The translations under genes and the position numbers were made by a program. Source: a virus (Duplodnaviria > Heunggongvirae > Uroviricota > Caudoviricetes). Taken from it: DNA of 46,116 bases. A model generated the notes under the pieces. That model made no database searches, was not told the origin of the DNA, and was given only the letters and a program-made list of their open reading frames with translations. Position 1 is the stretch's first letter. Every line of letters begins with the position of its first letter. The stretch is from the IMG/VR virus record IMGVR_UViG_2565956722_000005, positions 1-46,116 of that record; one strand, written 5' to 3'. Of this stretch, positions 31,576-31,939 are shown in pieces.

Positions 31576-31939
31576 TCATTCATTCCCCATTTCGGTGATG
31601 GTCAGTTCCAGCCTCCCACCTTTGGTAACAGGCATCTTCACAACGCGGTAATCAACGACCTGAGCATCATCCAGCCAGAAACCTGCTTTAGTGAGTGCGT
31701 CAAAAGCGGCTTTTTGCAGATTATCCAGGTCACGGCTACGGCGATCCGGCATGTGGCACTCAATGCGGATTTTCACAGGCATAGCCAGGCCGATATCCAG
31801 CATTGCGTTTTTAATGATTCGGGCGACGTTATCGCGGTATGCCTGCCCCCTCTGCACTGACGTGCGTGCGCCCGCGATTATGGCGGTAATAGCGATTATT
31901 GCTCGGAGGCCAGGGTAATGTGATACTGTAGGTATTCAC
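31576..31939 (-). pseudogene. rusA: rusA Holliday-junction resolvase, disrupted by a 1-nt insertion in a G5 run
   Basis: GTG at 31939 encodes [31 protein letters not shown], then stops; the rest of RusA ([12 protein letters not shown]...TITEMGNE) continues in another frame from 31857; span is 364 nt versus 363 expected. Confidence 0.6.

Follow-up and report, generated by a model that had tools for sequence, protein, structure and literature searches.

One extra G interrupts the rusA resolvase gene of a complete lambda-like prophage

The stretch of DNA analyzed here (the window, 46,116 nt) carries a rusA gene on its minus strand at positions 31576..31939. The upstream neighbor is ybcO (DUF1364, a putative nuclease; 31936..32226, minus strand), whose TGA overlaps the GTG of rusA within the sequence GTGA. 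On the downstream side is ylcG (31439..31579, minus strand), whose ATG overlaps the rusA TGA within ATGA, and the nin/Q operon then continues with a gene for a Q-family late antiterminator (30976..31353, minus strand; Pfam Phage_antitermQ, E = 2.5e-51). The gene order is ybcN-ninE-ybcO-rusA-ylcG-Q, and rusA thus lies in a lambdoid nin region, upstream of Q. Some other records, including that of an O55:H7 strain, have a 212-aa YbcO-RusA fusion protein.

The locus is 364 nt in length, compared with 363 nt for an intact gene of 120 amino acids. Both the ORF listing and a script give this length, and the script agreed with the original prediction that the additional base lies in a run of five C on the plus strand at 31846-31850. 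The reading frame that opens at GTG 31939 has 36 codons (31829..31939, minus strand), comprising RusA residues 1-31 and five aberrant codons (AGIPR), followed by a premature TAA at 31829-31831 that results from the frameshift and is seen both in the minus-strand reading and in the ORF listing. All of these coordinates had been correctly predicted. It had further been proposed that the rest of RusA continues in another frame from 31857. The change of frame is borne out, but 31857 is just the first possible start. An ORF of 93 codons in the +1 frame begins at that GTG (31576..31857, minus strand) and includes RusA residues 32-120, while the homology to RusA resumes right after the G run, at Gln32 (codon 31845-31843), reading QAYRDNV...TEMGNE and ending at TGA 31576-31578.

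GGGGG on the minus strand at 31846..31850 is the sole G/C homopolymer of five or more bases within rusA. Intact alleles have four G at this position (G4, against G5 in the window), and the +1 insertion changes codons 30-32 from GAG GGG CAG to GAG GGG GCA G. An uninterrupted ORF of ~120 codons is expected of RusA. In the window codon 31 is the last in frame, and a stop is reached at codon 37. On the evidence of its reading frames, the locus is a pseudogene of the RusA family and not a functional member.

Removal of one G gives a 363-nt ORF with a 120-aa product. This repaired protein is identical to crystallized E. coli RusA (PDB 1q8r) at 119 of 120 positions over residues 1-120 (E = 1.8e-79), the sole difference being R68S, and the identification of the gene as rusA is thereby confirmed, well outside anything that chance would give. 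The serine is encoded by AGC at 31735..31737 (minus strand), where alignment with intact alleles shows CGC (Arg68) in K-12 RusA. The C-terminal piece alone matches the Pfam RusA family (PF05866) from position 25 to 124 of 124, with E = 4e-17. Residues D70, D72, K76 and D90/D91 are needed for catalysis by RusA, and N15, R16, R19, R24 and T25 have been proposed to recognize the junction crossover (PMC1636454). The 36-codon fragment contains all of the latter loop residues but no residue needed for catalysis; those are all encoded unchanged, though in the +1 frame and cut off from the start codon.

The window contains a complete lambda-like prophage of ~44 kb. Its early genes include those for the integrase, exo/bet/gam, a cI-like repressor and O/P replication functions together with the nin region and Q, and its late genes comprise the lysis, terminase, portal, capsid and tail genes and J. 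The prophage is flanked by espL1/integrase on one side and, on the other, by a P-loop NTPase gene adjoining thrS. The window is 99.98% identical to positions 627441-673555 of the genome of strain elppa4 (NZ_CP083512.1), with 8 SNPs and 1 indel. In the RefSeq annotation of elppa4, rusA is the only gene of the prophage flagged as a pseudogene ('frameshifted'). The sole indel between the two sequences is in a C10 run at 26251-26260, which has nine C in elppa4. This run is intergenic, between nohD (small terminase, ~25163-25708, minus strand) and iss/bor (~26377-26670, plus strand), and represents either a homopolymer of truly variable length or a site of sequencing error.

The prophage appears to be related to the DLP12 remnant of K-12, but is of full length. 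K-12 RusA (ybcP; PDB 1q8r, 2h8c and 2h8e), which differs from the window gene by the frameshift at codon 31/32 and by R68S, is encoded in the cryptic prophage DLP12, where it has the same neighbors in the order given above, with emrE, ybcK, ybcL and ybcM upstream. Unlike the rusA of the DLP12 remnant, that of the window belongs to a prophage of full length at the espL1/thrS-side locus. Accessory genes of DLP12 type, namely emrE (multidrug efflux), ylcJ, ybcK (serine-recombinase family), ybcL and ybcM, are found between ren and ybcN at 34873-37282. Strain 2452 (NZ_CP031833.1) has the same prophage, from which two large deletions have removed the early region (ren to exo) and the structural genes from lysis to tail fiber. 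This derivative (local positions 14670-24481) retains the G5 rusA allele, and the espL1 of strain 2452 is likewise annotated as frameshifted. Strain 2452 might suggest that the element in the window is a degraded cryptic remnant. We rejected this, as strain 2452 has a deleted derivative and the prophage of the window is complete.

Some other features of the prophage may be recorded here. A cargo block at 28061-30820 separates the Q antiterminator from the lysis genes, in the position occupied by Stx or porin genes in other lambdoid phages. It includes, on the plus strand at 30296-30820, a gene for a Blc-like lipocalin lipoprotein (Pfam Lipocalin_2, E = 7e-44), and further encodes a YbgA-family protein and a helix-turn-helix protein. 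At the lambda N position, between the cI-like S24 repressor and a kil-like gene (40709-41304), there is no plus-strand ORF of 50 aa or more, and no N-like antiterminator is annotated. A scan of the whole window with Rfam at the gathering threshold returned zero matches. The large tail-fiber gene contains direct repeats of ~228 nt that are 84% identical with an offset of 189 nt (5314-5733).

We have examined the occurrence of the G5 allele in public records using an 85-mer centered on the run, designed so that only exact matches fall in the band of ≥99% identity. The 85-mer with G5 was found in 58 complete E. coli records, and the corresponding 85-mer with G4 had 183 exact matches. A 391-nt query across rusA matched no fewer than 40 complete E. 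coli records with 100% identity. Public contigs (NCBI, ENA and Logan) that encode the exact 93-aa product of the downstream ORF number at least 1000. The exact 36-aa N-terminal product is absent from the protein collection on exact look-up, presumably because gene callers skip ORFs so short. In both of the carriers that we examined (strains 2452 and elppa4) the RefSeq/PGAP annotation reads 'rusA ... frameshifted'. The frameshift is therefore already flagged by public annotation, and is an ordinary known feature. We found no specific account of a frameshifted or pseudogene rusA in a search of the literature.

Outside these carriers the run is shorter. When ~2,700 E. coli records were sampled at even steps, all 58 of the non-identical rows were one base shorter than the window, corresponding to G4, and all 25 phage records among the matches listed span 390 nt of the 391-nt query, again corresponding to G4. 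The rusA genes of lambdoid phages (ev017, ev207, 2G7b, PhiR11_1, mEp332 and others) are 96-99% identical over 391 nt and have the same flanking ylcG. Unlike the window gene, the phage copies among the matches listed have G4 and carry the annotation of an intact resolvase gene. The finding of five G in intact rusA alleles would have spoken against an insertion in the window, but the sampled K-12-type, CFT073, O157 TR01, ij001 and 23CRST032 alleles all have G4. In an alignment the first four of these differ from one another at synonymous sites only, all encoding WP_001099712.1, a pattern suggestive of purifying selection and not of loss. Compared with the closest of the four, the window allele has the extra G and the CGC to AGC change giving R68S.

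The R68S substitution might be taken for decay that followed inactivation. However, we reject this explanation because an intact rusA with G4 and S68 occurs in five complete genomes, with 100% identity to the window allele once one G is removed from the latter, and 550 contigs encode the intact S68 protein. Since S68 occurs together with intact G4 genes, the polymorphism predates the frameshift. The intact S68 allele (WP_001099715.1) is found in 23CRST032 and in the O7:K1 strain CE10; it is nucleotide-identical to the window allele except that it has G4 and so an intact ORF of 120 aa. 23CRST032, which is one of the five genomes, contains a collinear prophage that is 97.5-99% identical to that of the window over most of its length; both are found at one and the same espL1/integrase junction, and their integrases share a protein accession. 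The two prophages differ in the immunity region, and 23CRST032 has genes with a BstA C-terminal domain and a P22AR domain in place of ybcL/ybcM. The presence of an identical G4 allele in a related prophage indicates that the extra G is the only lesion in rusA, and that it arose within this prophage lineage.

We then consider whether the run is prone to such changes. In the commonest (K-12-type) background there were no exact matches to G5 among ~2,695 records, and a single record (ET474) with G3 was found by exact-match query; these counts are from exact-match identity bands with the best place taken for each record, such that a G5 in a rarer background could escape. With no G5 and one G3 in the commonest background, the run is not a mutation hotspot. 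The description of the run as slippage-prone in the original prediction is thus not upheld in the sense of a hotspot, as G5 was found in one sequence background only. Two other records have a single-base frameshift within the same 10-nt stretch of rusA as the window lesion. In FDAARGOS_772 (NZ_CP041002.1, local positions 1452-1813) an A is deleted 3 nt upstream of the G run, and the gene is annotated as a frameshifted pseudogene. The G3 of ET474 (NZ_CP100954.1) is an event distinct from the G5 of the window. Each of these lesions is present in one record only and may be an assembly error. Three of the carriers of G5 have been published as ST38 strains (28Eco12, 266917_2 and NMBU_W05E18), the last of which has been typed as phylogroup D (PMC6963479, PMC7311804). 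Judged from the sequences and these three literature-typed strains, the distribution of G5 looks like the result of a single insertion event that has spread by clonal descent in a lineage that includes ST38.

These observations suggest the following course of events, to which we assign a probability of about 0.9. Replication slippage would have added one G to the G4 run at codons 30-32, on one occasion. Translation from the normal GTG would then end after 36 codons, giving a recognition loop without catalytic residues, and residues 32-120 would be stranded in the +1 frame without a ribosome-binding site of their own. No Shine-Dalgarno-like sequence is present ahead of GTG 31857, the in-frame ATG 31803 or any internal in-frame start, and therefore a separate C-terminal product is unlikely. 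The prophage would consequently make no functional RusA dimer. A loss of RusA activity is to be expected because all the catalytic residues are downstream of the shift and are split from the recognition loop. Given the overlap of the rusA TGA with the ylcG ATG, any translational coupling of rusA to ylcG would probably also be lost in this allele. The lesion would be tolerated, and passed on vertically with the prophage in the E. coli lineage that includes ST38.

Such tolerance is not surprising. The lambda nin region is non-essential. The rusA gene of K-12 is normally quiescent, and suppresses ruv mutations only once it has been activated by insertion of an IS element upstream (PMC1636454). 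Given the quiescence of rusA in DLP12 and the presence of RuvABC in the host, the gene is dispensable and tolerance of the lesion is expected. On this basis the insertion is probably neutral.

A different view of the spread of the allele is that inactivation of rusA was selected, for example if RusA were harmful on induction of the prophage or disturbed recombination in the host. The status of rusA as sole annotated pseudogene of an otherwise complete 44-kb prophage is consistent with this, as are the very wide distribution of the allele (the contigs numbering at least 1000) and the independent lesions of FDAARGOS_772 and ET474. Yet hitch-hiking with a successful clone (ST38) accounts for the wide spread, independent lesions are rare, amounting to a handful among ~2,700 records, and the synonymous-only differences between intact alleles are those of a gene under purifying selection. 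The positive support for adaptive loss comes down to the abundance of the allele, which clonal hitch-hiking explains, and we consider this reading improbable.

The frameshift might alternatively be recoded. A +1 ribosomal shift, with tRNA-Gly moving from GGG to an overlapping GGG, or transcriptional slippage would yield some full-length RusA from a down-tuned gene. The sequence G GGG G would allow tRNA-Gly to re-pair perfectly after a +1 slip, and the run is within an AGGGGG motif that resembles a Shine-Dalgarno sequence. The AGGGGG hexamer stimulates +1 frameshifting in prfB, and translational 'correction' of indels has reportedly been documented. Reading the site by eye, GGG_G re-pairing is permitted, but the Shine-Dalgarno-like AGGGGG overlaps the slip site instead of preceding it. 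Moreover the A-site codon is GCA, which is neither a stop nor rare, and the stop is encountered five codons later. Five G is also far below the tract length known for efficient transcriptional slippage. Nor is the frameshift conserved in the manner of prfB: G5 is found in one allele (58 of ~2,695 records), and the sampled intact homologs, together with the phage copies among the matches listed, have G4. The allele is 100% identical among its carriers, and so too young for conservation to be informative. Recoding is accordingly a very improbable explanation. There is a slimmer chance still that the G5 allele acts as an attenuator, spontaneous +1 slippage of tRNA-Gly giving a trickle of full-length RusA. 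If true, the frameshift would tune down a potent resolvase in an otherwise intact and widely spread ST38 prophage.

It is highly implausible that the run is a phase-variable (contingency) switch, in which frequent changes in the number of G would turn rusA on and off. The lesion does lie in a homopolymer, and ET474 has G3 in a different background. However, contingency loci have long tracts, typically of ~7 or more, that vary between close relatives, whereas here there are 4-5 bases. All 58 of the exact-match carriers have G5, which was not found among the ~2,695 records in the commonest background, and the tract of the window that does vary in length, by comparison with elppa4, is the C10 at 26251-26260.

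Lastly, the original prediction had left open whether the extra base was an inactivating mutation or an error of sequencing or assembly, with a true sequence of G4 and an intact rusA. Homopolymer miscalls are common in long-read assemblies, and the C10 run does differ in length from that of a near-identical genome, but the error reading is scarcely credible: a five-base run is short for systematic miscalling, the identical 85-mer is present in complete records from many laboratories, the contigs encoding the 93-aa product include Logan assemblies of public sequencing runs, PGAP flags the frameshift, and G5 is limited to one allele background and prophage while ~2,600 other records have G4. A random homopolymer miscall cannot explain an identical G5 in many assemblies and in one background, and we therefore reject sequencing error. 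The extra G is, from its distribution in these records, a genuine mutation. The insertion half of the prediction is thus supported, with the inactivity of the product as its probable consequence.

As a single-base frameshift of the textbook kind, in an accessory gene that a prophage can dispense with, the lesion is of little weight in itself. It does illustrate that a real homopolymer indel can be told apart from a sequencing artefact by means of population data. The G5 allele can serve as a stable marker for one lineage of this prophage, whose host strains include the ST38 clone. A prophage with this allele would be expected to lack the back-up resolvase activity by which RusA can rescue ruv-deficient K-12.
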